This document shows, piece after piece, positions 9,001 through 59,779 of a stretch of 64,000 nt of DNA. The notes beneath the pieces were generated by a model. It was not told the origin of the DNA and made no database searches. It saw nothing but the letters and a program-made list of their open reading frames with translations. The stretch comes from Squalus acanthias. Lineage: Eukaryota. Within the stretch, counting starts at the first letter, position 1; every line of letters begins with the position of its first letter. The translations under genes and the position numbers were made by a program. The stretch lies in contig CM059432.1 in assembly GCA_030390025.1 (NCBI GenBank), positions 74,836,001 through 74,900,000 on the forward strand, written 5' to 3'.

Positions 9001-10977
9001 AAAAGGGATCAATACAAGTGATCGATACAGGGATCAATACATGGGATCAATACAAGGGATCAGTACAAGGGATCAGTACAAGGTATCAATACAAGTTATC
9101 ATTGCAAGTGATCAATACAAGGGATCAATACAAGGGATCAGAACAAGGGATCAATGCAAGGTATCAATACAAGGGACCAATACACGGGGTCATTGCGAGG
9201 GATCAATACAAGGGATCAATACAGGGGATCAATACAAGTGATCAATACAAGTAATCTGTACAAGCGATCAATATAAGGGATCAGTACATGGAATCAATAC
9301 AATGGCTCAATACAAGGAATCAATACAAGGTGATCAATACTAGGCATCAATACAAGGGATCAATACAAGGGATCATTGCAAGAGATCAATAAAATTGATC
9401 AATACAAGGAATCAATAAAAGGGATGCTTGCAAGCAATTAATAAAAGGGATCAATACAAGGGATCGATACAGGAATCAATACAAGGGATCAATGCAAAGG
9501 TTCAATACAAGCGACCAATACACGGGGTCATTGCGAGGGATCAACACAAGGGATCAATACAGGGGGTCATTGCAACGGATCAATACAAGGGATCAATACA
9601 AGGTATCAATGCAAGGGATCAATACAAGCGATCAATACAAGGGATCAATACAAGGGAGCAGTACAAGGGATCAATACAAGGTGATCAATACTTGGTATCA
9701 ATACAAGGGATGAATACAAGGGATCATTGCAAGGGATCAATACAATTGCTCAATACAAGGGATCAATACAAGGGATCATTGCAAGGGATCAATACAATTG
9801 CTCAATACAAGGGATCAATAAAAGGGATCCTTGCAAGCAATTAATAAAAGGGATCAATGCAAGGGTTCAATACAAGCGACCAATACTTGGGGTCATTGCG
9901 AGGGATCAATACAAGGGATCAATACAGGGGATCAATACAAGTGATCAATACAAGGGTTCAATACAAGGGATCAGTACAAGGGATCAGTACAAGGGATCAT
10001 TGCAAACGATCAATACAATTGATCAATACAAGGGATCAATACAAGGGATCAGAACAAGGGATCAATACAAGGTATCAATACAAGGGATCATTGCAAGGGA
10101 TCAATACAAGGGATCATTGCTAGGTCAATACAAGGGATCAATACAAGGGATCAATAAAAGGGATCCTTTCAAGCAATTAATAAAAAGGATCAATACAAGG
10201 GATCGATACAGGGATCAATACATGGGATCAATACAAGCGATCAATGCAAGGGTTCAATACAAGGGACCAATACATGGGGCATTGCGAGGGTTCAATACAA
10301 GGGATCAATACAGAGATCAATGCACGTGATCAATACAAGGGATCAATACAAGGGATCAGTACAAGGGATCAATACAAGGGATCAATACAAGGGATCAGAG
10401 CAAGGGATCAATACAAGGTATCAATACAAGGGGTCATTGCAATGGATCACTGCAAGGGATCAATACAAGAGATCATTGCAAGGGATCAATACAAGGTATC
10501 AATACAAGGGATCAATACAAGTGATCAATGCAAGGGATCAATACAAGGGATCAATACAAGGGATCAATACAAGGGATCAATACAAGGGATCAGAGCAAGG
10601 GATCAATACAAGGTATCAATACAAGGGGTCATTGCAATGGATCACTGCAAGGGATCAATACAAGAGATCATTGCAAGGGATCAATACAAGGTATCAATAC
10701 AAGGGATCAATACAAGTGATCAATGCAAGGGATCAATACAAGGGATCAATACAAGGGATCGATACAGGGATCAATACACAGGTTCAATAGAAGGGGTCAA
10801 TGCAAGGGATCAATGCAAGGGATCAGTGCAAGGGCGCAATACAAGGAATTAAAACAAGGGGTCAATAAAAGGGATCAATACTAGGTATCAATACAAGGGA
10901 TGAATACAAGGGATCAGTAAGAAGGGATCAATGCAAGGCATCATTGCAAGGGATCGACAAAAAGGGTCAATACAAGG
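1..10977. repeat. 13-bp tandem satellite, consensus GGGATCAATACAA (variants GGGATCATTGCAA, GGGATCAGTACAA), >=11 kb, open at both ends
   Basis: The 13-mer recurs throughout. The ORF track shows the 13-aa cycle GSIQGINTRDQYK (3x13 nt). The array runs off the window start and into the gap. Confidence 0.98.
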
Positions 10978-11477
10978 NNNNNNNNNNNNNNNNNNNNNNN
11001 NNNNNNNNNNNNNNNNNNNNNNNNNNNNNNNNNNNNNNNNNNNNNNNNNNNNNNNNNNNNNNNNNNNNNNNNNNNNNNNNNNNNNNNNNNNNNNNNNNNN
11101 NNNNNNNNNNNNNNNNNNNNNNNNNNNNNNNNNNNNNNNNNNNNNNNNNNNNNNNNNNNNNNNNNNNNNNNNNNNNNNNNNNNNNNNNNNNNNNNNNNNN
11201 NNNNNNNNNNNNNNNNNNNNNNNNNNNNNNNNNNNNNNNNNNNNNNNNNNNNNNNNNNNNNNNNNNNNNNNNNNNNNNNNNNNNNNNNNNNNNNNNNNNN
11301 NNNNNNNNNNNNNNNNNNNNNNNNNNNNNNNNNNNNNNNNNNNNNNNNNNNNNNNNNNNNNNNNNNNNNNNNNNNNNNNNNNNNNNNNNNNNNNNNNNNN
11401 NNNNNNNNNNNNNNNNNNNNNNNNNNNNNNNNNNNNNNNNNNNNNNNNNNNNNNNNNNNNNNNNNNNNNNNNNNNNN
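10978..11477. other. Assembly gap (500 N)
   Basis: Exactly 500 N, which looks like a placeholder length. Confidence 0.99.
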
Positions 11478-12730
11478 GTGTGTGAGGATGATTCAGGGTG
11501 TGTGTGTGAGGATGATTCAGGGTGTGGGTGGGGGTGATTCAGGGTGTGTGTGAGAATGATTCAGAGTATGTGTGAGGATGATTCAGGGTGTGTGTGTGAG
11601 GATGATTCAGGGTGTGTGTGTGAGGATGATTCAGGGTGTGGGTGGGGGTGATTCAGGGTGTGTGTGAGGATGATTCAGGGTATGTGTGTGAGGATGATTC
11701 AGGGTGTGTGTGAGGATGATTCAGGGTGTGTGTGTGGGGATGATTCAGGTTGTGTGTGTGGGGATGATTCAGGGTGTGTGTGAGGATGATTCAGGGTGTG
11801 TGTGGGGGTGATTCAGGGTGTGTGTGAGGATGATCCAGGGTGTGTGTGAGGATGATTCAGGGTGTGTGTGTGAGGATGATTCAGGGTGTGTGTGAGGATG
11901 ATTCAGGGTATGTGTGTGAGGATGATTCAGGGTGTGTGTGAGGATGATTCAGGGTGTGTGTGTGAGGATGATTCGGGGTGTGTGTGAGGATGATTCAGGG
12001 TGTGTGTGGGGTTGATTCAGGGTGTGTGGGGGTGATTCAGGGTGTGTGTGAGGATGATTGAGGGTATGTGTGTGAGGATGATTCAGGGTGTGTGTGAGGA
12101 TGATTCAGTGTGTGTGGGGGTGATTCAGGGTGTGTGTGGAGATGATTCAGGTTGTGTGTGTGAGGATGATTCAGGGTGTGTGCGGGTGATTCAGGGTGTG
12201 TGTGTGAGGATGATTCAGGGTGTGTGTGGAGATGATTCAGGGTGTGTTTGTGAGGATGATTCAGGGTGTGTGTGTGAGGATGATTCAGGGTGTGTGTGTG
12301 AGGATGATTCAGGATGTGTGTGTGAGGATGATTCAAGGTGTGTGTGTGAGGATGATTCAGGGTGTGTGTGTGAGGATGATTCAGGGTGAGTGTGTGGAGA
12401 TGATTCAGGGTGTGTGTGAGGATGATTCAGGGTGAGTGTGTGGAGATGATTCAGGGTGTGTGTGTGAGGATGATCCAGGTTATGTGTGTGAGGATGATCC
12501 AGGTTGTGAGTGTGAGTATGATTCATGGTGTGTGCGTAGGGTTGATTCAAGTTGTGTGTGAAGGGATGATTCAGGGTGTGTGATTGTGTGGATGGATGAT
12601 TCAGGGGGTGTGTGTGAGAATGATTCAGCGTGTGTGTGTGCCGATGATTCAGGGTGTGTGTGTCGATGATTCAGGGGATGAGTGTGAGGATGATTCAGGG
12701 TGTGTGTGTGTGTGGGCCGATGATTCAGGG
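11478..12730. repeat. GT-rich minisatellite, unit (TG)n-AGGATGATTCAGGG, ~20-24 bp
   Basis: Tandem GAGGATGATTCAGGGTGTGTGT with variable TG number, decaying towards 12730. Confidence 0.96.
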
Positions 12731-12837
12731 GATTTGTGTGTCCTTGCTGACCTTCCCTGGCTCCTATTCCGAAAAGAATGAGGATTTAATAATTGAGGCA
12801 TTTTCTGACCTGGAGCCAGTGAATGTCAGCAAGCAGC

Positions 12838-12905
12838 CACACACACCCTGAATCAACCCCACCCACACACCCTAAATCATCCCCACGCACACACCTCAGA
12901 TCATT
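12838..12905 (-). repeat. About 3 inverted monomers of the GT minisatellite
   Basis: ACACACCCTGAATCAACCCC and CCCTAAATCATCCCCAC are reverse complements of the array unit. Confidence 0.8.
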
Positions 12906-13285
12906 CATACCAATATCAGCCTTGTGGAATGTGGGGCGAACAGGTCACGTAGCGACCTACCCACCGGTTTCTCCATGGCGGCCCCCTGTTGCCGGAGAGC
13001 ATCCTCCCCACTCAAAGCCCCCTCACCTCATCCTTCCCACACCAACACCGAGCTGTCAGCCTGCCTTGCAGCAGCACATCCTTGCACCTCACAGACTGAT
13101 TCTGGAGGTGGTGGGTTCGATCGGTGGCCTCGCTGTCACCTCGCTCTGCTTTTTACTGTTACTTTTCCTGGAACAACCACACAACCTCCAACTTTACACT
13201 GCTTCTGACGTCACGGCATTAAACTGGATCTGCGCAGGTGCGAGAAATTCGTTTTCTGCAGTTTCACTTTCAGGAACACAACCAT
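12901..13285 (-). promoter_or_regulatory. CpG-rich promoter/first-exon-like module, copy A (paralogous to 16697-17146)
   Basis: Shares blocks with copy B (CCGGAGAGCA, GAGCTGTCAG, GCAGCAGCACATCCT, GACTGATTCTGG, GCTCTGCTTTT, GCGAGAAATT). Has a CRE TGACGTCA at ~13206 and an NRF1-like TGCGCAGGTGCG. Confidence 0.45.
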
Positions 13286-14790: not shown

Positions 14791-15709
14791 GATCTATTAC
14801 TATCTCGTTGGATCTATTACTATTTCTTTAATGAAGAGTAGACATGTAATGGTCAAACAGATAAACATATGCACCCAAAGGTCAGAACAGCACAAGGATT
14901 CAGAAGGCCTCCTGACTAACGGCAAGTCTGTAGTGTTCCTAGGTGTTTCAGGCTGTCGTGTTGACATTCTCCTGAAATTGCTTCTTTTTGTAAATCTCTA
15001 GAGAAACTGTCTCCAGACAGTTATATTGTTCCCAATACAGAATGGATCCAACTATAACTTCACATGGCGCAGTTTCTACCTCTAGTGAGCTGGGCTGCAA
15101 CAAATCTACGCAGGCCTCTTTGCCCATCGCTGAAACAAACAGAGAGAAATTAAATGTTTAACCCGCCACATTCACCTTGCTCACGGTTCCATATGACACA
15201 TTTACTTCCTTTTCCCAATGCTTGAGTCAGTTTGGTGTGTGGCTATTTTCCAGGAATGTTTTATGCAAAGCCTGCGAGAGATATGACACAGACTTACTGA
15301 CCTTTGTGCTGGCATGCAGGGCAGGTTGGTGTCCAGTTCAGAGACAAAGGCCTGGATTTTAAACCAAACCCCCCTTGATGGGTGGGAGAGGGTTGGGTGG
15401 GGAGTTAAAAGTGCGGCATTTGAGTAACCCACCCCACGCTCCATCCCCGTCTTCAGGTTAGAGAGTGGGGGAATAGAATGCGGTGGGGCCACTCATTGAG
15501 GGAGAAAAATACACATTCTTATCAGAGTGACAATCCCCAACACACTTTAGTATCAAAATAAAATGTATTTTCTTTTCTTTCACAACACAGAGGAATTTAA
15601 TTTCAACATTTCTTACAACTGCGAATGAAAAGGCCTCAGCTACATTTTCCATGTTGGAGGCAGCCAGCATCGATCGTGGCACAATTGCACCTTTGGTCAT
15701 GACTCAGAT

Positions 15710-16511
15710 GGGTGGGGGAGAAGGGGGATGGAGAGAGAGGAAGAGGGGGAGGGCAAGAGGGGGAGAGGGTAGGGCAAGGGCAAGAGGGGGAGGGGAAGAG
15801 GGGGAGCGCAAGAGGGGGAGGGAGGGAGGGGAGGGGGGAGGGGAAAGAGAGGGGGAGGGGGGAGAGGAAGAGAGAGGGAGGGGAAGAGGGGGAAGAGGGA
15901 GAGAGAGGGAGAGAGAGGGAGGGGGAGATGGGGAGAGGGGGAGGGCAAGAGGGGGAGAGAGGGAGGGCAAGAGGGGGAGGGACGGGAAGAGGGGGGAGAG
16001 AGAGAGGGGGAGAGGGGGAGAGGGGGCGGGGGAAGAGGGGGGAGAGAGGGAGGGCAAGAGGGGGAGAGAGGGAGGGGAGAGAGGGAAGGGGAGAGGGGGA
16101 GGGGAGGAGAAGGGGGAGGGGAGAGGGGGAGAGGGGGAGGCGAAGAGGGGGAGAGGGGAGGGCAAGAGGGGAGGGGGAGGGGAAGAAGGGGCAGGGCAAG
16201 AAGGGAGAGGGAGGGGAAGGGGAAGGGGGGAGAGGGGCAGGTCGAGGGGAAGAGGGGGGAGAGGGAGAGGGGGAGAGGGGGAGGGCAAGAAGGGGAGGGG
16301 AAGAAGGGGGAGAGGGAGGGGGAGGGGGAGAGGGAGGGGAAGAGGGAGAAGGGGGAGGGGAGGGGGAGAGGGGGAGGGCAAGAAGGGGGAGGGAAGAAGG
16401 AGGAGAGGGAGGGAGAGGGGGAGGGGAGGGGGAGAGGGGGGCAAGAGGGCAAGAGGGGGAGGGGAAGAGGGGGAGGGGGAGAGAGAGAGGGGGGAGAGGG
16501 GGAGAGGGGGA
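15710..16511. repeat. ~800-bp polypurine/polypyrimidine (G/A) tract
   Basis: Almost only G and A on +, with many G4-G6 runs and a recurring GGGAGGGCAAGAGGGGG unit. Confidence 0.95.
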
Positions 16512-30997: not shown

Positions 30998-31646
30998 GGG
31001 GAGAAATTCGGTATCGCCCCGTTTGGGCGCAGTAACTTTTGAAAGCTGGGAAACTTAGCGTCAGGCACTAATGATTCCCAGCTTTTTCTAAATTCTATGT
31101 TTGCACTCCAGGAAGGAAGTGGAGCAATAAATCAAGCATTCCACTTCCTTCCTGGAGCGCTAAAGGATGCAAGCGGCGTGGTAGTGGTGCAGCGCTGCCG
31201 CAATCTGAGGCTCCTTCCCTCCCTTAAAGGGAAGGGCCATCACTGCAGGCTCTGCATTGGGACCAGTTAGCTAATCCCTGACGGTAGCTGCGATCCGACT
31301 CGATCAGCCCCATGCACTCCAGCAGAATGCCGGGCTGATCGATCGCGGCCAAGAAGAATTGAAAAAAATTGGGGAAAAAAAGCATTGTAGAAATTTTCCT
31401 ACTTATCTCGGTAACCTTCCCTTTAACTTCCACCCCCGAAGTGCCAGGCCTCCCGGACAATGCTTCCTGTAGCTGTCGGCGTTTTCACCCAGCGATGCTG
31501 CAGGGGGCAGAACCATAGTTTGGGTCCGGGTCGCTACCGGGGTGATGCACACGGCAATGACGTCACGATCTCCAGGCGCAGGAGATTGTGGCGCAAAGTG
31601 CTACTGCCGTCACAAACCTCCCGGCCAAGTTAGTGGGAGTCGTTGT
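30998..31646 (-). mobile_element. Harbinger-family MITE M1 (one end truncated)
   Basis: Starts GGGGAGAAATTCGGTATCGCCCCGTTTGGGCGC, matching the reverse complement of the H2 right end. Hairpin at 31086-31158, CRE at 31558. No coding capacity. Confidence 0.75.
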
Positions 31647-34818: not shown

Positions 34819-35610
34819 GGGGGAGAAATTTGGTATAGCCCTATTTGGGGCGCTAAAACATTAAAAGTTGAAGAATTAGCACCAGGCACTAATCATTGTC
34901 GACTCCCACGAAATTCATTGTTAGTGCTCCAAGAGGGAAGTGGAGCACTAAAACAAGGGCTACACTCCTAACTTAGGGCGCTAACCTCTGAGAGCGGGGC
35001 GCTACCGGCAGAGCGATAAAGCAGGTCATGCGCAGTCCAAGCGGCACTCTTTAATCACACAGGCTGCTTCCATCACTTAAAGGGAAGGGCCAATCACGCT
35101 GTATAACCTCGTAGTCATCAGTGGTGTTTTTCAACGCGACCTGGGCGACTGCCATTGCAGCCCCCATCACTTTCAGAAAGTGCAGCATTTGGAGATGTTT
35201 GAGGAAAAGGTGTACAAAATTTTGCAGGCAGCAGACTGGTGCAAGTAATAAACGGTGCGATCACTGAAAGCGCCTTTTTCGCGATGTTCAAGCGACATGG
35301 AAACATTCCCTTTAATTACCGCTCCTGCAGCGCACTTCCGAGTGCACAAATCCTCCTCTCACTGGTGTTGTCGGCGCGAGGCGCTAAAGCAGGGGGCGAA
35401 AGACAATTTTACATAGGGGCCGTTAACGGGCTGTTGCACACGCATTGACGTCACCATGTGAGAGGTGCTAGAGGCCTAGGCGCTAAACTGTTAGCGCCGG
35501 CGCTAAACTGTTAGTACCAGCGCAAATTCGCCACTGAAGGTCGCGTGCGGCGTTGGATTCACTGTGGCCGGGCACTAACGGGAGGCGCTAACCTACTGAA
35601 TTTCACGGCC
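34819..35610 (-). mobile_element. Harbinger-family MITE M2 (~790 bp)
   Basis: Ends GGGGGAGAAATT and AATTTCACGGCC. Subterminal GCGCTAA motifs, CRE at 35446, and end homology to H2. Confidence 0.8.
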
Positions 35611-36399: not shown

Positions 36400-37098
36400 G
36401 AGCTGGAAATTTGGTGCATTTGCGCCTCCCGTTAGTGCCTCCGGGGGGCGCTAACGGGGCACAAACTGACTTTTCGCCCGGGCGCAGCACCGCTAACGAC
36501 TCCTGCTAAATTCAGCGGCAGTTTAGCAGCGGCGGAAACCGGTAGTGCCCCACTACGCTGTGCAGGCAATGACAACGGCATCACCGTGCGCAGCGGCCCC
36601 GTTTTTGCCCCGCCTGCAAAATTGGCCCGTGCCCCCTGAATCTGCACCGGGCGATGACAGCGACCGATTCAGGGGGTGGGAACAGAGCGGCAGGAGGCTC
36701 GCGGGACGATAACTAAAGGGAAGGTGGCGGGCGGGGGGAAAAAAAATCGGCCGACTTACTTGTCGTGGCCCGTTGCGTCTTTTAACACGGAATCTGTGAT
36801 CTGGCAGCCCGGCACTTCTCTTGAGTGCCGGGCTACTGGCACAACACCCCGCTCCCCAGTGGTCCAGGTAGGCCCCCGCAGAGTTGCGGGCTTGGGCCCT
36901 CCCCTTTAATGAGGGGAAGAGCCCTTCCATGCGGCAGCGCTACATGGCCCAGTGCGTAGCGCTGTAGAACGCACCGCCCCGATATTCGGGGTTAGCGCTC
37001 CAAGAAGGAAGTGGAGTGCTTGAATTAGCGCTCCACCTCCCTCTTGGGGCACTAAAACTGAAGTTAGCGATCGCCGGCGCGATTTTTCGATGTTAGCC
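36400..37098 (+). mobile_element. Harbinger-family MITE M3 (~700 bp)
   Basis: GAGCTGGAAATT...TTGCGCCTCCCGTTAGTGCC...GCCCGGGCGCAGC matches the H2 left end. The hairpin at ~36997-37050 matches the H2 right subterminus. Confidence 0.8.
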
Positions 37099-46838: not shown

Positions 46839-48537
46839 GTCAGTAATTCTTTTTAATAATTAAAACATTTTGCATATTTCTTTCCCTTCTAGTTTAGAGT
46901 GAAATTTTCCAATGTTTTATCAATTGTTATCTCCAGGACTTGAGAAAATAAAGCACATAGTACAGTGGTTCATCACATAAGTAACACACAGTAATAGGAT
47001 GTAGATTCTTGCAAAGTGACTTCCAAATCAGTAAGGGGCACTGAACAGAGGTCAGGCACTTCCCAATAGAGAGGGAAAGAAATCAGAAGCCAAGTTATTC
47101 GGAACCTGTATCTCTTTGCAGCTCACTCAAGAGTATTCTTGACAGATGCCTCAGAGCAGGTCATCAATATGTTTGATCTAATAGCCATTATGGAGATGTG
47201 GTTGCAAAGTGACCAAGGTTCAGAACAAAATGTTCCAGGATGCTTAACTTTTAGAAGAGATAGGCAAAATGGAAAAGGAGGAGGGGTAGTCCTGATAATA
47301 AAGGATTGGATAAAGACAGTAGAGAGAAAGGATCTTCGCTCTGAAAATCAAGAAGTAGAATCAGTTTGGGTGGAGCTAAGAAACAGCAAAGGGCAGAAAA
47401 CATTGGTGGGAGTTGTTTATAGGCCCCCAAACAGTAGTTGTAATGTAGGGCAGAGTATAAATCAGGAAATTAGAGGCGCATGTAACAAGGGTAATACAGT
47501 AATCATGGGGGACTTTAATCTACATATAGACTGGGCAAACCAAATTTGCAGTAATAGTATGGAGGACGAGTTCATGGAATCTATACAAGATAGTTTTCTA
47601 TATCAGTATGTTGAGGAACCAACTAGGGAACAGGCTATTTTAGATCTAATATTGTGCAACAAGAAAGGGTTAATTAATAATCTTGCAGTAAAGGGGCCTT
47701 TAAGGAAGAGTGACCGTAATATGATAGAATTTTATATTAAGTTCAAAAATGATTTAGTTAAATCCGAAACTAGGGTCTTAAATCTAAACAAAGCAAACTA
47801 CATAGGTATGAGGGGCGAGTTGGCTAAGGTAGATTGGAAACTACATTAAAAGGTATGACGGTAGACAAGCAATGGCTAGCATTTAAAGAATTAATACATA
47901 ATTTACAACAAATATACATTCCATTAAGGCACAAAAACCCCACAGGAAAAGTGGTCTAACCGTGGCTAACAAGAGAAGTTAAAGATAGTATTAGATCAAA
48001 GGAAGAGGCTTACAATGTTGCCAAAAAGAGTAGTAAGCCTGAGGATTGGGAGGATTTTAAAATTTAGCAAAGGAGGACCAAGAAATTGATAAAGAAAGGG
48101 AAAATAGAATATGAGAGTAAACTAGTGAGAGACATAAAAACAGACTGTAAAAGCTTCTATAGGTATGTAAAAAGGAAAAGATTAGCGAAAGTAAACGTGG
48201 GTCCCTTACAGGCTGAGACAGGAGAAATTATAATGGGGAATAAGGAAATGGCAGAGAAATTAAACCAATACTGGATTTTCCGTCTGGAGACGGGTTCGTG
48301 TCGGGTTCAGTGTTTGGCGGGTTCTGGACCCGCTATCGGTTCCATCTGCAGTGAGATAACGATTTTTAGTAGATTGGGCTTATTAAGCCCGCTGTGCGCA
48401 TTACCCGGCCCAATCAGTGGGTGCGGGTCTGCTGCTCGCCTTTGATGATGTCTTTGACTCAGCTACATTTAAGGGGGCCATGTCCCCTTTGGGTTTCATT
48501 TACATTTTGATGCTCCTGAGTGCTGGTGTTTGCCGAG

Positions 48538-50424
48538 ATGACTGCTTCTAGAACAAAGGCTGCTCCCCGTTTTGATGATGACTCCCTCCATGTTCTTGTG
48601 GAGGGAATAAAAGGGCACAAGGAGGTTCTATTCCCTTTGGATGGAAGAAGGAAGCCTCCTCAGCATACCAAGGCAGCCTGGCTGCAAATTGCTGAGGAGG
48701 TGAGTGGGAGGTCTGTCTGTACACGCACCTGGGTCCAGTGTTGGAAGAGGTTCAATGATCTCCTGCGTTCAGCAAAAGTGAGTATAACAGCACACTCGCC
48801 TTCATTCTGCTGTGCCTGTCTTCACATCCCCATCAATCTGCATTGCCAGTCCTACTCTTGCACATCCTAACTCACCCCAACATCCCTTGCACCATCACCC
48901 TCTCTCCGTATGTACAGAATCACATCCCCATCTTTCTATGCACCCCTCACACTCATTCTCAATGTTATGCCATGATGACAACTAACAACTCACAAGGAGG
49001 AAAATTGGTATTGGCATCTCACTCCAGCATAGTCTCCCTCCAAACATCTATTCAATCCATTCTTTACACTCATTCCATCACTCTCACTAAAACTGCACTT
49101 CTGTCCCTCATTGCAGGAAAAGAGATCCCACAATAAGAGGGAGAGGAGAGAACAGGAGGAGGAGCACCATCCATGGCGCAGCTCACCCACACTGAGGAGT
49201 CAGCTCTGGACATTGTTGCAGGTGCTGAGGAGCTTGAAGTGGGGGCAGAGAGACGGGTTCAGCCGAACAACCTGGTGACAGAATTATTTTTCCAAACATC
49301 TGATTTGGCATTCAGGATTAACTGATACGGGATCTGATGTTCCTAGAGATTGAGTGCTAATTACTTGCACAAGAGAATATGTGTGCAACCTACATATCAC
49401 ATGTCTTTACTCTCCCACAGGACCATCAAGAGCCCCCCTCCGTACTGTCCAGAAGGAAGAGCAGGAGGACTCCTCAGAGGAACCTCCAGCCTCTGAGGGA
49501 GCACCGTCAGCAGAAATGAGCGCAACCTGCACCCTGCACCATCGCAGAGACGCACACCTCGGTGGGTCCAATGCGAGATAGAGTAGTGTTGTCACCTGGT
49601 GTCTCATAACTCACAAGTGAGCAAGAGCAGATGGTGGAGACAGGGACAGGTGTGGAGAGTCCTCATCAGAGGCCGCAGGACTCTCCTAGCTTTGCTGAGC
49701 TGCATGCAGACACTGAGCCTCGGGGGCCATCCAGAAAGAGAGCGGTGCTGGAGCTTCAGGAACAAGTGCAGGAGGCTGACTGGGTTAGCAACCACGGTGA
49801 CTGTGAGTATGCAGAGAATGGAGGAGTCCATCTCCAATATGAGCAACGCCATGGTGCAGGCACTGGCAAATGTAGGTCCCGCCATGGAAAGGATGGCCAC
49901 CTCCATGGAAGACATAAATCGCCAGACACAGGAGAACATGGTAACACTTCTAAATAGATGGTCAGCTATGGAGGATAGCTGGGCATCTATTGATAAGAGA
50001 AACCAGAGGTTCATGGACGTCTTTGTTATGAGGAATGTCAGCACAGACACGGGTCCTCATGGCCCCACTGATGTGCAGCAAAGTGCTCCCCAGCAACTTG
50101 CTGGCAGAGAAGTGCGGGTGGCCCATGAGAGGGATGGTGGTGGAAGGGGAAATGAAAGTGGGGGCTCCTCTCCAAGCACTCATCCCATTGCCCACCCCTC
50201 GGTCAGAGCCCCAGATGCCTCCCCCAACAGAGATGGCCGAGTCTGCCCCTGCACAGCCGCAGGAAGAGCAGACTTTGGCGGGACCCTCACAGGCTCCACA
50301 ACCCAGAGGATGGCTGCCAAAGCAGGCGTGGCAGGGAAGTGAGCAAGCTGCCTCTGCATCTGCTGAAGCCACAGGGGAAGCACCACGAAGAAGCACGCGT
50401 AAGAAAAAGCTAACACACAAATAG
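48538..50424 (+). pseudogene. H1 Myb/SANT-like gene, exons 48538-48777, 49117-~49274, 49421-50424; frameshifted
   Basis: AAPRFDDDSL..LVEG...VLFP....AW.QIAEEV...RTWVQCWKRFNDL, donor AAA|GTGAGT and acceptor TTGCAG|GAA. A 1-nt frameshift lies just before RTGGG, with more in exon 3. Confidence 0.8.
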
Positions 50425-50734
50425 TCACAAGGGTAGTCACTTGGGTGCTTTCATATAAATCAGTGTAATGTTTGTGCTCTTTCATTTTATTGTATTAAAG
50501 TGATGTCATGTGATTGTACTAAAGTGATGTCATGTGAATGTTTCAAAGCGTTGCCCTATATGTGCTCACAATTGGAGGTGTCACAGCGAGGGGTAAGGGC
50601 GCCTTTCATCTGAAGCAATGGTGGTGAAAGGGCTAGGAATGCACAGTTCATTGGAGGGCTGCTCTATGGTGTGGAAGTGGCGTCATGCGAACATTCACGT
50701 GCATGTGGCAGCCACATGTAAGTGATGCCTAAAG

Positions 50735-51985
50735 TTAGTTGAACCTGGCATGGATTAGGCCATCCCTTGCCTGATGGGCAGCAATGTGCTTGCGTGCTGG
50801 TCGCACTGGGTCAGCCACCATCTCCAGGTGTTCCTCATCTGCAACCTCGTTCGGCTCTTCTTCCTTCTCCTCCTCCTCCTCATCCTCTGAAGAGGCTGTG
50901 CACTCTGTGACCTGTTCCTCAGGCAGCGCTAATCCCCATTGCAGTGCGATCTTGTGCAGGGCACAGCAGACCATGATGATTCTCGATACCCTGGCTGGTG
51001 CGTATTGTAGGGCTCCACCAGATCTGTCCAGGCATCTGAAGCGCATTTTGAGCAACCCTATTGTTTGCTCAATGACACTTCTGGTGGAGATGTGGCTCTG
51101 ATTGTAGCTCTCCTTTGGCTCGGTTGATGGCCTCCTCATCGGCGTCATTAGCCATGTCTTCAGGGGATAGCCCTTGTCTCCAAGGAGCCATCCGGAAAGG
51201 TCATTTGGCGGAGCGAAGAGCTGAGGCACAGTGGACTGGCGCAGGAGGCAAGAGTCATGGCAGCTGCCAGGGTACTTTGCGCACACATGCATTATGCTCT
51301 TCCTGTGGTTACACACCAGCTGCATGTGAAGGGAGTGGAAGCCCTTGCGGTTCACAAATACTGCTGGGTTGTAATGGGGTGCCCTGATGGCCACATGGGT
51401 GCAGTCGATGACGCCCTGCAACCGTGAAAAGCCAGCCAGAGTGAGACAGCCAAGTGCCCGCACGGTAACATTTGCTTCATCGGTTGAAAAGTGGATGTAA
51501 TTGGCGGACTTTGCAAAAAGGGCATCGGTAACCTGCGTGATGCATCTGTGGGCGGCCGACTGGGAGATGGCGCTAATGTCTGCTGCTGATCCCTGGAAGG
51601 ACCCTGATGCAAAGAAGTTGAGGGCAGTAGTGACTTTGACAGCCACTGGTAAGGCGTGCCCACCCGCTCCTCTGGGCTGCAAGTCTTGGTGCAGCATAGC
51701 GCAGATGTCTGCGACTACCTCTCGCGAAAGTTTCAGGCTCCTTTGGCAGTGCTGCTCACTCATGTTGAGGAAGCTCATCCTCTGTCTGTAAACCCGGTGT
51801 TGGGGGTATCTCCTGCGGCGCGGGCCAGCCAAGCACTGACGCCCTCTGCCCTGTGCAGCATCCGGCAGCTGAAGAGAAGGTTGGCGCTCTTGTTGGTGCT
51901 GCTGCTGTGCCTGGTTCTGCAGCTGCCGCGGATGATCCTCTTCCGAATCGGAGGACCAGGATGCGAGAGTATAAATGGCTCCCAT
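50735..51985 (-). CDS. Harbinger (HARBI1-like, DDE_Tnp_4) transposase, 416 aa, open ORF
   Basis: [57 protein letters not shown]. The D-D-E triad is present. Confidence 0.92.
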
Positions 51986-54210
51986 TCTGCTGTTATATCT
52001 GGCAGTTGAGGATGAGATGTTATCAGGAGTAAGTCAATCGGGAGAGAGCCTATTCCGAGGAGGTGACAGTGCATATAGAGTTCACAGCACACACTTACAA
52101 CCTCAATATAGCTCAAAGGTGTCCTCCAAATAATGAATTCAGCCACTTCGGCCATTTGAAAATGAACTGATGTGATTGGTAAGTTTATATGCAGCACTTG
52201 CAACTGTGAATTATTCAGCTCATTGGAAGACCCAACACACTCAGCTGGCGTGGTTGTCGAACGACGTGAAACACATTGAAAATGGAATTAACCTGGCAAA
52301 ATAGCATTTAACAAGGAGTTAACAACCTTAAATGTCTCTCCCGCCGCTTGGTGTTGGGTCTGCTGTGAAGGCACAGAACCGACACTTTGGAAACAGGCGT
52401 GGAGGTGGGTTAGCGACGGGTTCCAAACCCGCCATCAATCATTTTGGATTTAACAGCTGACCCACCTCCAAACCCGCCATCTCAGCGCCGGCAAAATTGC
52501 AGCCTTTGTGTTTGTCTTCATGGAAGAAGATGCAAAAAACTTCCCAGAAATAGTGGAGAACCAAGGGTCTAGCGAGAATGGGAGACTGGTCAAGAAGGTA
52601 AGAGCCCATGGGATCCAGGGCAATTTGGCACATTGGATCCAAAATTGGCTTAGTGGCAGGAGGGTGATGGTCGAAGGTTGTTTTTGTGACTGGAAGCCTG
52701 TGTCCAGCAGTGTACCGCAGGGATCGGTGCTGGGTCCCTTGCTGTTTGTAGTGTACATTAATGATTTAGATATGAATGTAGGAGGTATGATCAGTAAGTT
52801 CGCAGATTGGTGGAGTGGTAAATAGCGAGGAGGGAAGCCTCAGGCTACAGGATGATATAGACGGGTTGGTCAGATGGGTAAAACAGTGGCAAATGGAATT
52901 TAACCCTGAAAAGTGTGAGGTGATGCATTTTGGGAGGACTAACAAGGCAAGGGAATACACAATGAATGGTAGGACCCTAAGAAGGACAGAGGATCAGAGG
53001 AACCTTGGTGTGCATGTACATAGATCCCTGAAGGCAGCAGGACAGGTAGATAAGGTGGTTAAGAAGGCATATGGGATACTTGCCTTCATTAGCCGAGGCA
53101 TAGAATATAAGAGCAGGGAGGTTATGCTGGCACTGTACCAAACGCTAGTTAGGCCACAGCTGGAATACTGTGTGCAGTTCTGGTTGCCACACTATAGGAA
53201 GGATGTGATTGCATTGGAGAGGGTGCAGAGGAGATTCACCAGATGTTACCTGGGCTGGAGCGTTTCAGTTATGAAGAGAGACTGGACAGGCTGGGGTTGT
53301 TTTCCTTTAGAGCAGAGAAGGCTGAGGGGGAACCTGATGAGGTGTACAAAATTATGAGGGGCATAGATAGGGTAGATAGAAAGGAACTTTTCCCCTTAGT
53401 AGAGGGGTCAATAACCAGGGGGCATAGTTTCAAGGTAAGGGGCAGGAGGTTTAAAGGGGATTTGAGGAAAAACATTTTCACCCAGAGGGTGGTTGGAATC
53501 TGGAACTCACTGCCTGAAAGGGTGGTAGTGGCAGGAACCCTCACAACATTCAAGAAGCATTTAGATGAGCACTTGAAACGCCATAGCATACAAGGCTACG
53601 GACCAAGTGCTGGAAAATGGGATTAGAATAGATAGGGCTTGATGGCTGGCGCAGACACGATGGGCCGAAGGGCTTCTTTCTGTGCTGTATGACTCTATGG
53701 GGTAAAAATTCAGTTGGTTGCGCCTCCCGTTAGCGCCTTAAGAGGGCGCTAATGGGGCGTTAAGGCGCTAACGCCCGGGCGCAGCGCTGTTTGCGCCGCT
53801 CGAGAACTTAACTTGAGATTGTGCGGCGGCGCTAAAACTTACCGCTGCGACCACCTGCGCGCGCAGATTGTGACGTCATTCCGTGGTGCAACGCCCTTGG
53901 GGCGCCCCGGAGCAGAAATTGAGTGGCGCCCCCTGCCTTACCGCCTGGCGCTTCCAACGACCGGAAGACTGGAACGTTATCAATCGGTGTGGGGCTGGGG
54001 GGGGCGCTATTTAAAGGGGGCCTCTTCCTGTCTTTTTCTGTGGTCGACATTTATGCACCACTCGTTCTGAGAGAGAGAGAGAGATTCGGAGAGAGAGAGA
54101 GAGAGACTTCTACATTGACTCAACGCTTTGTGAGGTAGTTTTGCCTAGTTCATCCTAACTTTGCTGCTACTTTAGTTGCTGTACCTCATTACTTTTCTGG
54201 CAAAGAGAAT

Positions 54211-55371
54211 ATGGGGGCTGCAATGATTGGGGGCGTCGTCCTGCTCCAGCTCAATCGGAGGATAGTGAGACGCAGACAGAGAGTGGCAATGATGGCCAGA
54301 CGGAGGAGGGCCATCAGGCGCATGTACAGGAGAGCTTACCCTCCCAGGGTATATCGTGAACAGCTCTCCTACATCCACATGTCCGAGGAGCTGTGTTTGC
54401 GAAGGCTGCGATTCAGCAAGGAGGTGGTCACTGAGCTCTGCCACCTGCTGCAGCCAGATCTGCAGCCTCAGCTGAGGTCCAGGACGTCTCTGTCGGTGGC
54501 AGTGAAGGTCACAGTGGCTTTGAACTTCTACGCCACTGGCTCATACCAAGCTGCTGTTGGGGACCTCGCCAATATCTCCCAGTTTGCGGTGCATTGCTGC
54601 ATCCGGCAGGTCACCAATGCCCTCTTCACAAGGAGACGAGACTTCATCTCCTTCCCTATGACCCCAGACAAGCAGCATGACCGTGCTATGGGCTTTGCGA
54701 GGGTAGCGGGCTTCCCCATGGTGCAGGGCGCCATTGACTGCACGCATGTGGCTTTGCGTGCTCCGCGAGAGAATGCAGAGGAGTTCCGGAACAGAAAGGG
54801 GTTCCATTCCTTGAATGTGCAGTTGGTCTGTGACCACAGACAGGTGATTCTCGCTGTCAATGCCCACTATCCGGGCAGCTGCCACGATGCTTTCATCCTG
54901 CGCCAGAGTACTGTGGCAGAAATTTTCGAGGCACCGCATCAGCCAGTTGGTTGGCTTCTGGGGGACAAGGGGTACGCATTGAGCACCTGGCCGATGACAC
55001 CGCTCCGTGCGCCAAACACCCCTGCTGAGCTGCGGTACCAGGAAAGCCAACAAGCAACCAGGAACATTATTGAGCGCACAATCGGCGTGCTCAAACAACG
55101 ATTCCGCTGTCTGGACCATTCCGGAGGAGCCCTGCAGTACTCGCCTGAGCAAGTTTCGAAATTCGTAGTCGTGTGCTGCATGTTGCACAACATGGCAATC
55201 CTCAGGACGCAGCCAATGCCACCAGGCCTTGCAGCACCACAAGAGGAGGAGGAGGAAGAGGAGGAACAGGACGAGGACGATGATCAGCAGCAGCACCAAG
55301 GCAGGAGGGCGGCCCACAATGGTCAAACTGCAAGGGCCGTCCGTCAACGACTAATAGCAAGCCGCTTCTAG
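54211..55371 (+). CDS. Harbinger (HARBI1-like, DDE_Tnp_4) transposase, 386 aa
   Basis: [73 protein letters not shown], acidic tail. Confidence 0.95.
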   Translation: MGAAMIGGVVLLQLNRRIVRRRQRVAMMARRRRAIRRMYRRAYPPRVYREQLSYIHMSEELCLRRLRFSKEVVTELCHLLQPDLQPQLRSRTSLSVAVKVTVALNFYATGSYQAAVGDLANISQFAVHCCIRQVTNALFTRRRDFISFPMTPDKQHDRAMGFARVAGFPMVQGAIDCTHVALRAPRENAEEFRNRKGFHSLNVQLVCDHRQVILAVNAHYPGSCHDAFILRQSTVAEIFEAPHQPVGWLLGDKGYALSTWPMTPLRAPNTPAELRYQESQQATRNIIERTIGVLKQRFRCLDHSGGALQYSPEQVSKFVVVCCMLHNMAILRTQPMPPGLAAPQEEEEEEEEQDEDDDQQQHQGRRAAHNGQTARAVRQRLIASRF

Positions 55372-55665
55372 GGCCCCTGCCATTGCTACAAACACGAATC
55401 AACCCAGCACGCAACCCCTAAGCCGGCCAAGGCACCAATAATTCCAACCACCAGCCATGTATATTTTGAATACAGAAACTTATTTATTGTACAAACTCTG
55501 TGTGTGTCAATTCCTCATGACAAACTCATAGAAATAAACACAAAAAAACAGTCAATAACATAACTGGTTCTCACAACCTGGAGATAATGTCCAAAACACT
55601 AAACAAAAGTTGGGCCATGAACCTCGGCCTTTAATAAAAAAATGACCAGCATTTTGGCACACCTC

Positions 55666-56732
55666 CTACTTTTTGCCCTTCGAGGGTGATCTCCTTCCCT
55701 TGCGCACTTCCCCCCTTCTAACCCTACTGCTCCTCCGTAATGGGACCTCAGTGGCTGCAGCAAGGCTGGTGGAAGGCTGCTGCTCGTCAGACCCTGACAC
55801 TGCAGATGCCCCTGAAGGACGGCCTCGACCACTTCTGGGCCTGGAGGGCCCGGCTGCAGACTGCACCAACTCTGCATGGGCGGCAGCAGTCTGTCCTACA
55901 GGCGGTGGCAAGTGCAGTGGAGAAGTGACAGTGTTGGCAGCAGGAATGCTGTCATCGTGAGAGAGGACAGCAACTCCCTGCTCGCCCGACACACTGGCAC
56001 TCCCACGGGGCAGCACTTCAGCATCCGGAGCAATTTGCCGGAGAACAGATTGCTGGCCTGCTGCGGCGCGGTGACAGCCCCGGGGACATGTGCACGAACC
56101 ATCGAGGATGGCAGCAGTCAGTGCTCGCGTGGCCTCAATCTGAGTCTGCATGAGAGCAGTCTCAGATGGGTTCCTGGCAGCCAGTGACTGAATTGCAGCA
56201 CTAAGCTTTAGTGTGGCATCCGCCTGTGCTACAGCGAAGTGCTCCACACTCCTTGCCAGTGCCTCAATGCATTCGGGCACCCTTCCCACTGCACCCATGA
56301 GCTCAGTGTGCATGCCCACCGCCTGGCTGTTCATTTCTGCAATCAGCCGCTCCTCCTCTGCGTCCATTGCATTAGGAGTGTCTGGCATACTCTCCCTCTG
56401 GGGAGAAGGCTCCCGTTCTTCCCTCCCCCCCCCATGGCGTTGCTGCAGCCCGCTGGGTCCTGGAGCTTCACCATCATCAGCCCCTTCCCCCCTGCTCCCC
56501 CGTTCTTCTCTCCCCCCCCAATGGCGTTGCTGCAGCCCGCTGGGTCCTGGAGCTTCACCATCATCAGCCCCTTCCCCCCTGCTCCCCTCCGGGGAAGGCG
56601 TGTTCCCAGTGTGGCCATGGGCTTCCTCGGGAGAGGGTGGCACTGATGCTCCGGCTTCCTCTTCCTCCTCAGCTGCAGCATCACTCCCAGTGGCAGCTTC
56701 AGGGACCATCTCCTCAGCTGGTGAATCGCCAT
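55666..56732 (-). CDS. H2 Myb/SANT-like protein, exon 3 (spliced product 488 aa)
   Basis: Acceptor CCCTGCTTTCAG|AT joins in frame to ORF 55666-56709. 237+163+1067 = 1467 nt. Basic C-terminus RRSSRVRR..KGRRSPSKGKK. Confidence 0.85.
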
Positions 56733-56891
56733 CTGAAAGCAGGGAGGTACAAGAGTGGCTTTAGCGTGAGGACAGGGTGGCAGTAAGGGAGGAATAAGTG
56801 CAGCGAGTTAGCAAGTTGGATTGAAAGTGTCAAAGGCTGGTATTGTGAGGGACAAGTGGAAGGACAGAGGACAAAAAGGTGATGACCTTAC

Positions 56892-57054
56892 CATTGCTGT
56901 CCACAACGGGGTCGGCGTCCCCAGTGGCGATGGGACCGATCACCCGGCTTGCCACAATCCTGTGGACGCGCTCCTCCAGATCGCTGAGGGGTTGCAGCTG
57001 AAGCCGCCCTCCACCCGTCCGTTGCTGCTGTCTCCGATTATGAGCCAGCTTAGC
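56892..57054 (-). CDS. H2 Myb/SANT-like protein, exon 2
   Basis: Acceptor TTTTTCTTGCAG|GCT, AKLAHNRRQQQRTGGG...LSDLEE, donor ATG|GTAAGG, 163 nt, phase 1. Confidence 0.88.
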
Positions 57055-57086
57055 CTGCAAGAAAAAGGACAGCATCTGAGTAAATA

Positions 57087-57252
57087 TACAGCCATGGTCT
57101 TGCCTGATGTGCCTCCCATAGGTGAATAGCCCTTACAATATGCAGCCATGGTCTTGCCTGATGTGCCTCCCATAGGTGAATAGCCCTTACTGTATGCAGC
57201 CATGGTCTTGCCTGATGTGCCTCCCATAGGTGAATAGCCCTTACTGTATGCA
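57087..57252. repeat. 54-bp tandem repeat x3 in H2 Myb intron 1
   Basis: GCCATGGTCTTGCCTGATGTGCCTCCCATAGGTGAATAGCCCTTAC at 57091, 57145 and 57199. Confidence 0.95.
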
Positions 57253-57392
57253 AAGTGTGGAATGTGTGTGTGTGTTTGATGAAAGGGCCATAGGTGTTGC
57301 ATGAGTGTTGTGCATTGGAGTTTTAAGACCCTCTGGCCATATAGTGAGGTTGAGATGGAGGGATGGAGAGGTATTGAGAAAAAGCCACTCAC

Positions 57393-57629
57393 CCTGACGA
57401 CCCGAGTGAGGTCGTTGAATTTTTTGCGGCACTGAACATGGGTCCTGGGCACCATGCTCCTGGAGGAGACGCTCTGAGCCACCTCCCTCCACACTCTTCT
57501 GAACTCGCGTGGCAAAGGCCTCCTGCCACTCTCCGGGAACAGCATGCATCGTCTGCGCTCCACTGCGCCAACCAGAGCATCCAAGGCCCGCTCGGTGAAG
57601 CGATGAGCGCGTTCTCTCACCCTCTCCAT
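57393..57629 (-). CDS. H2 Myb/SANT-like DNA-binding protein, exon 1
   Basis: MERVRERAHRFTERALDALV...LFP...W.EVA..VS......QCRKKFNDL, donor AGG|GTGAGT, 237 nt, phase 0. Confidence 0.9.
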
Positions 57630-59779
57630 GCTTGGCAGCAAAATGGATTACAAGTCTCTCTAGGCTGAGATTCAAGGCTGCAATGAGCAGGGTGTGGCTG
57701 GGGAGCAAGTGGCCCCCCCCCGCTTTAAGAAGTGTCCGGCGCCAGTGTGTCTGTGTTCCCTCGCTAACTGGCAGCAGCTGCGCTGCGCTCGTGCGCTGAG
57801 GTAGCGCCTCACTCCTAGGCCTTTGCGCCTTAAGAGAGGTGTGCAGCGCCTAATTTAGCGCTCCACTCACCTCCCGGGGCGGTAAAAGTGAAGTTTACTG
57901 TCAGTGCCGATAATTAGCGCCAGGCGCTAATATTTGCGCGCGGACGATATTTGCGCCCCAAATGGGGCGCGACCTAATTTCTACCCCTATGACTCTAATG
58001 AAGAACTGAAAGAAATTAAAATTATTTAAAAAAAAATAGTACTGGAGTAATTAATGGGACTGAAAGCCGATAAATCCCCTGGACCTGAAGGCCTACATCC
58101 TAGGGTTTTGAAAGAGTTGGCTATAGAGATAGTGGATGCATAGGTTGTCAACTTCCAAAATTCCATAGATTCTAGAACAGTTCCCGCGGATTGGAAGGTG
58201 GCAAATGTAACCCCATTATTTAAGAAAGGAGGGAAGAGAGAAAACGAGAAACTACAGACCAGTTAGCCTGACATCGGTAGTAGGGAAAATGCTAAAATCT
58301 ATTATTAAGGACGTGGTAACAGGGCACGTAGAAAATAATAATAGGATTGGGCAGAGTCAACATGGATTTATGAAAGGGAAATCATGTTTGATGAATCTGT
58401 TAGAGTCTTTTGAGGTTGTAACTAGCAGAATTGATAAGGGGGAACCAGTGGATGTGGTGTATTTGGATTTTCAGAAGCCATTCGATAAGGTGCCACACAA
58501 GAGGTTATTAAACAAAATTAGGGCTCATGGGATTGGGGATAATATACGAGCTTGGACTGAGGATTGGTTGACGGACAGAAAACAGAGAGTAGGAATAAGC
58601 GGGCCATTTTTGGGTTGGCAGGCTGTAACTAGTGGAGTACCGCAAGGATCAGTGCTTGGGCCTCAGCTATTCACAATCTATATCAATAATTTGAATGAGG
58701 AGACCAAATGTAATATATCCAAGTTTGCTGATGATACAAAGCTAGGTGGGAATGGAAGTTGTGAGGAGGATGCAAAGAGGCTTCAAAGGAATATAGACAA
58801 GCTAAGTGAGTGGGCAAGAACATGGCAAATTTAATATAATGTGGAGAAATGTGAAGTTATCCACTTTGGTAGGAAAAGTAGAAAAGCAGAGTATTATTTA
58901 AGGGTGAGAGATTGGGAAATGTTGGTGTTCAAAGGGACCTGGGTGTCCTTGTACACAAATCACTGAAAGTTATCATGCAGGTACAGCAAGCAATTAAGAA
59001 AGCAAATGGTATGTTGGCCTTTATTACAAGAGGATTGGAGTACAAGAGTAAAGACGTCTTACTGCAATTATATAGGGCCCTGGTGAGACCACACCTGGAG
59101 TATTGAGTACAGTTTTCGTCTCCTTAGCTAAGGAAGGATATACTTGCCATAGAGGGAGTGCAACGAAGGTTCACCAGACTGATTCCTGGGATGGGGGGAT
59201 TGTCCTATGAGGAGAAATTGAGTAGACTAGGCCTATATTCTCTGGAGTTTAGAAGAATGAGAGGTGATCTCATTGAAACATACACAATTCTTACAGGGCT
59301 TGACAGGGTAGATGCAGGGAGGATGTTTCCCCTGGCTGGGGAGCCTAGAACCAGGGGTCACAGTCTCAGAATAAGGGGTCGGCCATTAGGACTGAGATGA
59401 GGAGAAATTTCTTCACTCAGAGGGTGGTGAATCTTTGGAATTCTCTACCCCAGAGGGCTGTGGAGGCTCAGTCGTTGAGTATATTCAAGACAGAGATCGA
59501 TAGATTTTTGGATATTAAGGGAATCAAGGGTTATGGGGATCGGGCAGGAAGGTGGAGTTGAGGTAAAAGATCAGCCATGATCTTATTGAATGGCCTACTC
59601 CTGCTCCTATTTCTTATGTTCTTATGTACCTGCCTGTCTGTCCTGTCAGCCAGTGAATGGTGTTTGGCTCACTGAGATACAAGAGAGGTAACAAACAAAA
59701 TAAAATAAAATAGAGAAATAAAGGTGAGGATTATTAAAATCATTTATTTTAATTGAAAAATTAAAGTGGAAGACCAAGG

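Follow-up and report, generated by a model that had tools for sequence, protein, structure and literature searches.

The 64,000-nucleotide stretch of the Squalus acanthias genome analysed here (assembly GCA_030390025.1, contig CM059432.1, positions 74,836,001 to 74,900,000 of the forward strand; hereafter the window) contains a complete two-gene cut-and-paste transposon of the PIF/Harbinger superfamily, which we call H2 and which spans window positions 53699-57987 (4,289 bp). It carries a DDE transposase gene and, convergent with it on the opposite strand, a Myb/SANT gene; the features are collected in Table 1. Of the 12 positions of the terminal inverted repeats (TIRs), 11 are the same in GGGGTAAAAATT, at 53699, and in the right end at 57987 when this is reverse-complemented (GGGGTAGAAATT), and the element is flanked by an exact TAT duplication. 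The CpG observed/expected ratio is 1.13 at the left end (53699-54020) and 0.82 at the right end (57631-57987), compared with 0.37 for the whole window. An earlier account drawn from the letters of the window, called here the sequence-only reading, had described these ends correctly. It had also placed H2 as the innermost layer of a nest, which holds: the element lies within the 3' octamer tail of a truncated CR1, and this CR1 in turn splits an older CR1 with a duplication of AATG. The motif GCGCTA/TAGCGC occurs eight times within the ends of H2, once in its interior and 19 times across the remaining window, an enrichment that suggests binding sites for the Myb protein.

Table 1. Features of H2 and of the CR1 elements enclosing it, in window coordinates
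Feature	Position	Strand	Remarks
Truncated CR1, host of H2	52581..53698	+	5'-truncated; octamer tail is the landing site; tail resumes 57991-57996
Left TAT duplication copy	53696..53698	+	
Left TIR	53699..53710	+	GGGGTAAAAATT; nearly all sister copies end likewise
CpG-rich left subterminal region	53711..54020	.	4 GCGCTA/TAGCGC motifs (putative Myb-protein sites); likely transposase promoter
Harbinger DDE transposase, 386 amino acids	54211..55371	+	ATG 54211 to stop 55371; private F112Y, R129C, L261P
Codon 261	54991..54993	+	Proline in H2; leucine codon in 111/111 other copies
Myb exon 3	55666..56732	-	Acidic low-complexity C-terminal part; 56412-56587 has a tandem repeat of 87 bp along with poly-C runs
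Myb intron 2	56733..56891	-	159 nt, GT-AG
Myb exon 2	56892..57054	-	Junction motif agrees with P0124
Myb intron 1	57055..57392	-	338 nt, GT-AG; 54-bp tandem repeat of variable copy number; splicing predicted from homology
Myb exon 1	57393..57629	-	Myb/SANT-like DNA-binding domain PF13873
CpG-rich right subterminal region	57631..57975	.	4 GCGCTA/TAGCGC motifs (putative Myb-protein sites); likely Myb-gene promoter
Right TIR	57976..57987	-	GGGGTAGAAATT, minus-strand reading
Right TAT duplication copy	57988..57990	+	
Older CR1 ORF2, outer host	57997..59630	+	Continuing fragment at ~52505-52580; AATG duplicated; end approximate

The two genes of H2

The transposase matches the profile PF13359 (DDE_Tnp_4, E=4e-37), and the catalytic-type residues D176, D226, D252 and E288 are all present, among them the superfamily's triad D176, D252 and E288; the frame is intact, as had been described. 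Its closest homologues come from sharks and rays and are 40-66% identical, and the protein database search returned none above 66%. The transposase profile had no match among solved structures at E<=0.01. H2 bears nine substitutions that are absent from all 111 other copies compared, including F112Y, R129C and L261P in the transposase and V121I in the Myb protein. At position 54992 all 111 sister copies have T, and the homologues have leucine or isoleucine at residue 261 in 29 of 29 aligned sequences and phenylalanine at residue 112 in 28 of 29. A structure model places residue 261 in a beta-bridge shortly after D252, adjoining the strand of this catalytic residue (predicted local distance difference test, pLDDT, 87). 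From this conservation and the model, L261P likely impairs the transposase of H2 itself. The sequence-only reading had pointed out that H2 has WPMTP where two other Harbinger elements of the window, H1 and H3, have WLMT; the difference is real, and the damage that it feared is probable.

The Myb gene, which starts at 57629, is predicted to consist of three exons joined across two GT-AG introns of 338 and 159 nt, giving 488 amino acids. Exon 1 matches PF13873 (Myb_DNA-bind_5, E=4.7e-9, 36.5 bits with a cut-off of 21.7), the Myb/SANT component of the superfamily, and the spliced product aligns end to end with the protein P0124 (36% identity over 537 columns, E=7e-85), which bears out the gene model of the sequence-only reading. 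At the first junction P0124 reads KKFNDFTRVTMAKLAHNRR and the predicted H2 product KKFNDLTRVVRAKLAHNRR, and for 53 of the 70 homologues of exon 1 the alignment continues across this junction. Exons 2 and 3 compared pairwise with P0121 gave nothing significant. Splice joints were examined in four sequencing runs guessed to be RNA; in one contig of run X19 (depth 622), intron 2 is removed exactly (56733-56891; joint 56732-56892, canonical ends), so that one of the two predicted joints is seen. Six other joints in these runs are non-canonical and of low depth.

Exon 3 varies among copies. Its 87-bp in-frame repeat (56412-56587) is present in one to several units, and the Myb product ranges from 457 to 575 amino acids. 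The poly-C runs are the chief site of frameshifts in many sister copies, most broken Myb genes slipping by one base, and these frameshifts may partly be assembly errors. A dense cluster of amino-acid changes at residues ~309-342 (window ~56100-56200) sets about 11 older copies apart from the others; it may reflect either relaxed constraint or recombination with a sister family.

The relation of H1 and H3 to H2 is distant, with about 51% transposase identity, and both are decayed; the three-exon layout attributed to them is confirmed by homologous segments of exons 1, 2 and 3. H3 (~48271-52504), of a second Harbinger family, is located in the older CR1 that also surrounds the host of H2; its transposase frame is long and open (50735-52033, PF13359 E=9e-38), its Myb gene is decayed and one end is damaged. 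H1 (22369-~26269; right end uncertain) represents a third Harbinger; it has stops and frameshifts and has lost a splice donor, the first donor reading CT.

A large family with a palindromic target

The sequence-only reading had called for a search for near-identical copies in the genome, and the copies are abundant and not clearly diverged. Exact matches to a transposase 26-mer number 2,897 in the 3.7-Gb genome, to a left-end 26-mer 17,089 and to a right-end 17-mer 9,252, and the reversed controls gave 0 in each case. Among the first 40 transposase matches by position on contig C1, 38 copies are full length within the fetched stretch; the transposase frame is open in 30, the Myb gene in 18 and the two together in 15, and the mean pairwise divergence is 1.6%. 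Scaled from 15/40, roughly 1,100 copies genome-wide would have both genes open (about 650-1,550 from sampling error), an estimate in which the exact-match filter favours young copies. Full-length copies make up ~0.3% of the genome (2,897 x 4.3 kb / 3.7 Gb).

Of 20 left-end loci fetched, nine of them chosen for having both ends seen, 19 are non-coding elements of ~870-900 bp with H2-type TIR and target, most of which resemble the ends of H2 at 92% and 84%. Judged by these shared features, the thousands of ~893-bp MITEs (miniature inverted-repeat transposable elements) in the genome appear to belong with the family of H2. The remaining locus belongs to an autonomous sister family of 92.6% identity, whose 386-amino-acid transposase frame is open (L109:312-1991). 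At L098:270-2099, two ~900-bp MITEs lie adjacent in one orientation, with identical flank letters before each. The sequence-only reading had placed MITEs of H2 close to it. The MITE-like pieces of the window (~30998-31593, 34819-35603, 36420-37065) resemble H2 or its MITEs only in short stretches, the longer ones at 67-80%; by sequence similarity they are assigned to older relatives, and the MITE family of H2 sits elsewhere in the genome.

Target sites were read after removal of rows with one end outside the fetched stretch (L011, L019, L029, L056, L058, L131), and the target and selection counts also leave out L021, L022, L062, L070 and two MITEs, whose flanks are shared with another row. An exact 3-bp duplication occurs at 113 of 126 sites, which together with a short TIR starting with G is characteristic of the superfamily. 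Within the 113 duplications the middle base is A or T in 109; 21 are TWA (TTA or TAA), and none is CWG. In the flanks, position -4 is A in 97 and +4 is T in 108; next to the duplication, -1 is C in 74 and +1 is G in 78. The consensus is a 15-bp palindrome, ARASWC-NWN-GWSTYT. CR1-tail-like flanks were found at 16 of the 126 sites; genome-wide, the tail motif follows 419 of the 9,252 right ends in one orientation, and 1,001 of 10,135 CR1-tail motif matches (~10%) run into a Harbinger left TIR, that of H2's family or a related one. Two further groups of copies share their sites, six in one 27-bp site of another repeat (L026, L074, L089, L114, L119, L146) and five in one further repeat site (L030, L037, L046, L136, L103). 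They are independent insertions, in both orientations, at the same base of dispersed repeats.

The closest transposase homologues carry the database label 'putative nuclease HARBI1', which could point to a domesticated host gene pair of the HARBI1/NAIF1 or MSANTD kind. That name is an automatic label borne by many elasmobranch paralogues, and the TIRs, the target duplications, the ~2,900 dispersed copies and the insertion into a CR1 tail lead us to reject domestication, to which we attach almost no probability.

Succession of source elements, selection and age

A tree of 75 copies, rooted on the 92.6% sister family, has the shape of a ladder, with H2 in its middle and not at its tip. No daughter of H2 is found among the 111 copies: H2 branches midway, and 14 of 3,755 sites separate it from its nearest sister. 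The tip clade, comprising the 39 copies nearest to L063, has both genes open in 26, and five of its members (L121, L124, L135, L140, L142), on five contigs with different flanks and with both genes open, are identical at the 3,755 unmasked sites. The family of H2 is thus recently amplified. The copies L130, L126 and L122 (right part) combine tip-clade left halves with right halves bearing older alleles, a mosaic that suggests recombination or gene conversion between copies.

H2 itself could be an active autonomous element, inasmuch as its frames are open, its splice sites, TIRs and catalytic residues are intact, and its modelled structure folds with the proline, though on an alignment of leucine homologues. 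Against this stand the three private transposase changes, two of them at positions where 28-29 of 29 homologues agree, and the lack of daughters. The right junction of H2 is also found in two DNA runs of different samples, with an element side of 15 letters only, below the 31-letter criterion, and one of the runs maybe the assembly's source; no empty-site joint (53698 to 57991) was found among the 15 joints listed out of 42. As to insertion polymorphism at this locus, then, a filled site is indicated in two samples and an empty one did not appear among those joints. We regard activity of H2 as improbable. The sequence-only reading was right about the anatomy of a complete two-component Harbinger and about its young family, and it went too far in offering H2 as a natural active candidate, in view of its private changes, its mid-ladder position and its junction in two samples. 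H2 is a real and well-formed copy; the family is of interest, and H2 itself is ordinary. We think it probable that H2, though it looks intact, is a crippled member of a two-gene PIF/Harbinger family that is very large and was amplified recently.

Whether that family is transposing today, with the tip clade as its living autonomous source and many insertions polymorphic or new, is a separate matter. The five identical copies, the open state of both genes in 26 of the 39 tip copies, and the element sequence and spliced joint in probable-RNA runs speak in its favour. Tip private divergence is 0.08%, on the order of half the nucleotide diversity (pi) of 0.002 published for another shark (PMC10587355), and tip insertions could therefore still segregate. 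On the other side, at 1,639 sites outside those used for selection, copies with zero to four private changes number 11, 14, 9, 3 and 1, with one further copy having 7, which fits a single Poisson distribution of mean 1.33 (expected 10.3, 13.7, 9.1, 4.1 and 1.4), so there is no excess of brand-new copies. The five identical copies also have unequal tandem-repeat numbers. At the epaulette-shark rate of 7e-10 mutations per generation (PMC10587355), the tip non-CpG divergence of 0.053% corresponds to ~0.76 million generations (0.38-3.8 million over the rate interval); because the slow rate allows ~0.4-4 million generations, shark copies can be nearly identical without moving at present. We place present-day transposition a little below an even chance.

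The same slow rate could mean that the family is long dead and only looks young. In runs of eight organisms the share of sampled words present is 0.37-0.87, and organisms D and G contributed contigs that match H2 at ~96-99%, so that the burst may predate species splits. Yet the tip clade is about one third as diverged as H2 and includes identical copies, both genes are open in many copies, the rate used is that of a different species, and the samples of the eight organisms may merely contain DNA of this animal. Extinction of the family is a possibility we take seriously while leaning away from it.

Selection was assessed in 71 copies by comparing substitutions common to at least three copies with private ones, each site being counted once without the tree; the counts are small. 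Shared changes in the transposase comprise 19 nonsynonymous and 18 synonymous substitutions (ratio per site, pN/pS, 0.33; p=0.0015 versus neutral), and those in Myb exons 1-2 comprise 6 and 9 (pN/pS 0.22 versus 0.89 for private changes, Fisher p=0.028). Such purifying selection favours the view that the two proteins were functional in the source elements and are read in the frame predicted here.

Several observations weigh against our reading of H2 and its family. Among private transposase changes the ratio lies below neutral as well (0.54, p=0.008), partly because about half of the copies were chosen by transposase identity, which leaves the contrast between private and shared transposase changes without significance (p=0.24). 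Exon 3 is without purifying selection (26 nonsynonymous and 4 synonymous shared changes, pN/pS 2.2, p=0.15); a word-index search with exon 3 by itself gave zero homologues. The intron 1 joint, the other half of the predicted splicing, is absent among the joints in the probable-RNA runs, and the contig with the intron 2 joint comes from organism B with a short side of 24 letters, the RNA nature of the runs being guessed. The effect of L261P is inferred, and the GCGCTA motifs are taken for Myb-protein sites from their enrichment.

Taken together, the family may work as follows. By analogy with the zebrafish element, the spliced Myb/SANT protein would bind the repeated GCGCTA motifs in both ends and bring in the DDE transposase, which would excise the element and place it in the middle of ARASWC-NWN-GWSTYT, where the three central bases become duplicated, as seen at the sites. 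This palindrome occurs in CR1 octamer tails and in a few other repeats, and these are struck repeatedly. The family spread as the observed ladder of successive source elements, with purifying selection indicated, on small counts, for the transposase and Myb exons 1-2, and these sources may have driven the ~893-bp MITEs in trans, with which they share TIRs and target. After its insertion H2 would have gained its nine private substitutions, of which L261P likely impairs its own transposase; it would then be movable only with proteins supplied by sister copies.

Elsewhere in the window, positions 1-10977 are taken up by a satellite of ~11 kb, its 13-bp unit resembling TCAATACAAGGGA, which stops at a 500-N gap (10978-11477). 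Positions 11478-12915 and 15687-16500 hold a GT-rich minisatellite of 22-24 bp (inverted block 12837-12915) and a purine-rich simple repeat.

Comparison with known Harbinger elements

The family of H2 passes the superfamily tests run, and neither of the group definitions based on a TWA or a CWG duplication fits it. The narrow PIF/Harbinger group is defined by TWA (PMC4482050), present at 21 of 113 sites, and NuwaI by CWG, present at none. The NuwaII group of the PHIS elements is alike in the C and G beside the duplication (74 and 78 of 113), in a TIR starting with GG and in the pairing of DDE and Myb/SANT proteins, and differs in its target C|TNA|G, a TNA centre being found at only 24 of the 113 sites (PMC4482050). 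Rice Ping/Pong/mPing shares two proteins, MITEs and a 3-bp duplication within a longer preferred site; it differs in being a plant system proven active in vivo, which prefers a 9-bp site and, in the assay, duplicates TTA (PMC2836001).

A 2015 survey catalogues 88 potentially active two-ORF (open reading frame) PIF/Harbinger families, reports PHIS elements as absent from sharks and has no shark families in its PHIS listing (PMC4482050). A 2022 study found none in the elephant shark, recommended other cartilaginous fish for checking and published Harbinger expression in teleosts (PMC9179366), and a 2025 reef-shark paper gives Harbinger as a repeat-summary line only (PMC12498223). In Caenorhabditis inopinata, an animal Harbinger family causes insertions (PMC13668399). 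We found no description of a shark Harbinger family in the open literature, as distinct from subscription papers, Dfam, Repbase and bioRxiv supplements. Judging from H2's family, elasmobranch Harbingers can be abundant, recent and largely coding-competent.

Harbinger-Snek of sea kraits is likewise a two-gene Harbinger found in nature in a vertebrate; it has recently undergone a large expansion and has been proposed to be possibly still moving. In that element, 269 fully intact copies are reported in Laticauda colubrina, and RNA covers both genes of an intact copy in L. laticaudata (PMC8437027). With these copies and the 88 families catalogued in 2015 (PMC4482050), the novelty implied by the sequence-only reading was overstated. 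Harbinger-Snek arrived by horizontal transfer and makes up 8-12% of the genome (PMC8437027), unlike the ~0.3% of full-length H2-family copies. Vertical descent of the latter fits, because homologues of 40-66% identity are spread across sharks and rays; horizontal transfer is unsupported by this distribution.

Another close counterpart is Harbinger3_DR of zebrafish, the same element as NuwaI-2_DRer (PMC2836001, PMC3016246, PMC8151067, PMC4482050), which is alike in its length of ~4.2 kb, 12-bp TIR, DDE_Tnp_4 and Myb_DNA-bind_5 proteins and 3-bp duplication (PMC4482050). The transposase cores are identical at about 28 of 56 positions, counted by eye. Transposition needs both proteins in Harbinger3_DR and in Ping/Pong; the Myb protein binds the element ends and carries the transposase into the nucleus (PMC2836001). 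The Myb protein of H2 has 488 amino acids compared with 221 in Harbinger3_DR, and many natural copies of H2's family keep both genes open, whereas Harbinger3_DR was reconstructed. The zebrafish target AAACACCWGGTCTTT (PMC3016246) fits the H2-family consensus at 12 of 12 flank positions, and the difference lies in the centre, where the H2-family duplication is NWN. Our tentative synthesis, which we would sooner doubt than affirm, is of a living natural vertebrate Harbinger lineage of about a thousand copies with both genes open, arranged in a ladder like that of a long interspersed nuclear element (LINE) and under purifying selection, which has kept the 12 flank bases of the zebrafish target, has relaxed its centre from CWG to NWN, and finds in CR1 tails a self-renewing landing site. 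If this is true, the tip copies would amount to a ready transposon system with a sequence preference and, within the superfamily, to a distinct class of target; should the tip clade move, it would be an unreconstructed vertebrate Harbinger and would form with Harbinger3_DR a natural pair on what sets the duplicated centre of a shared 15-bp target.

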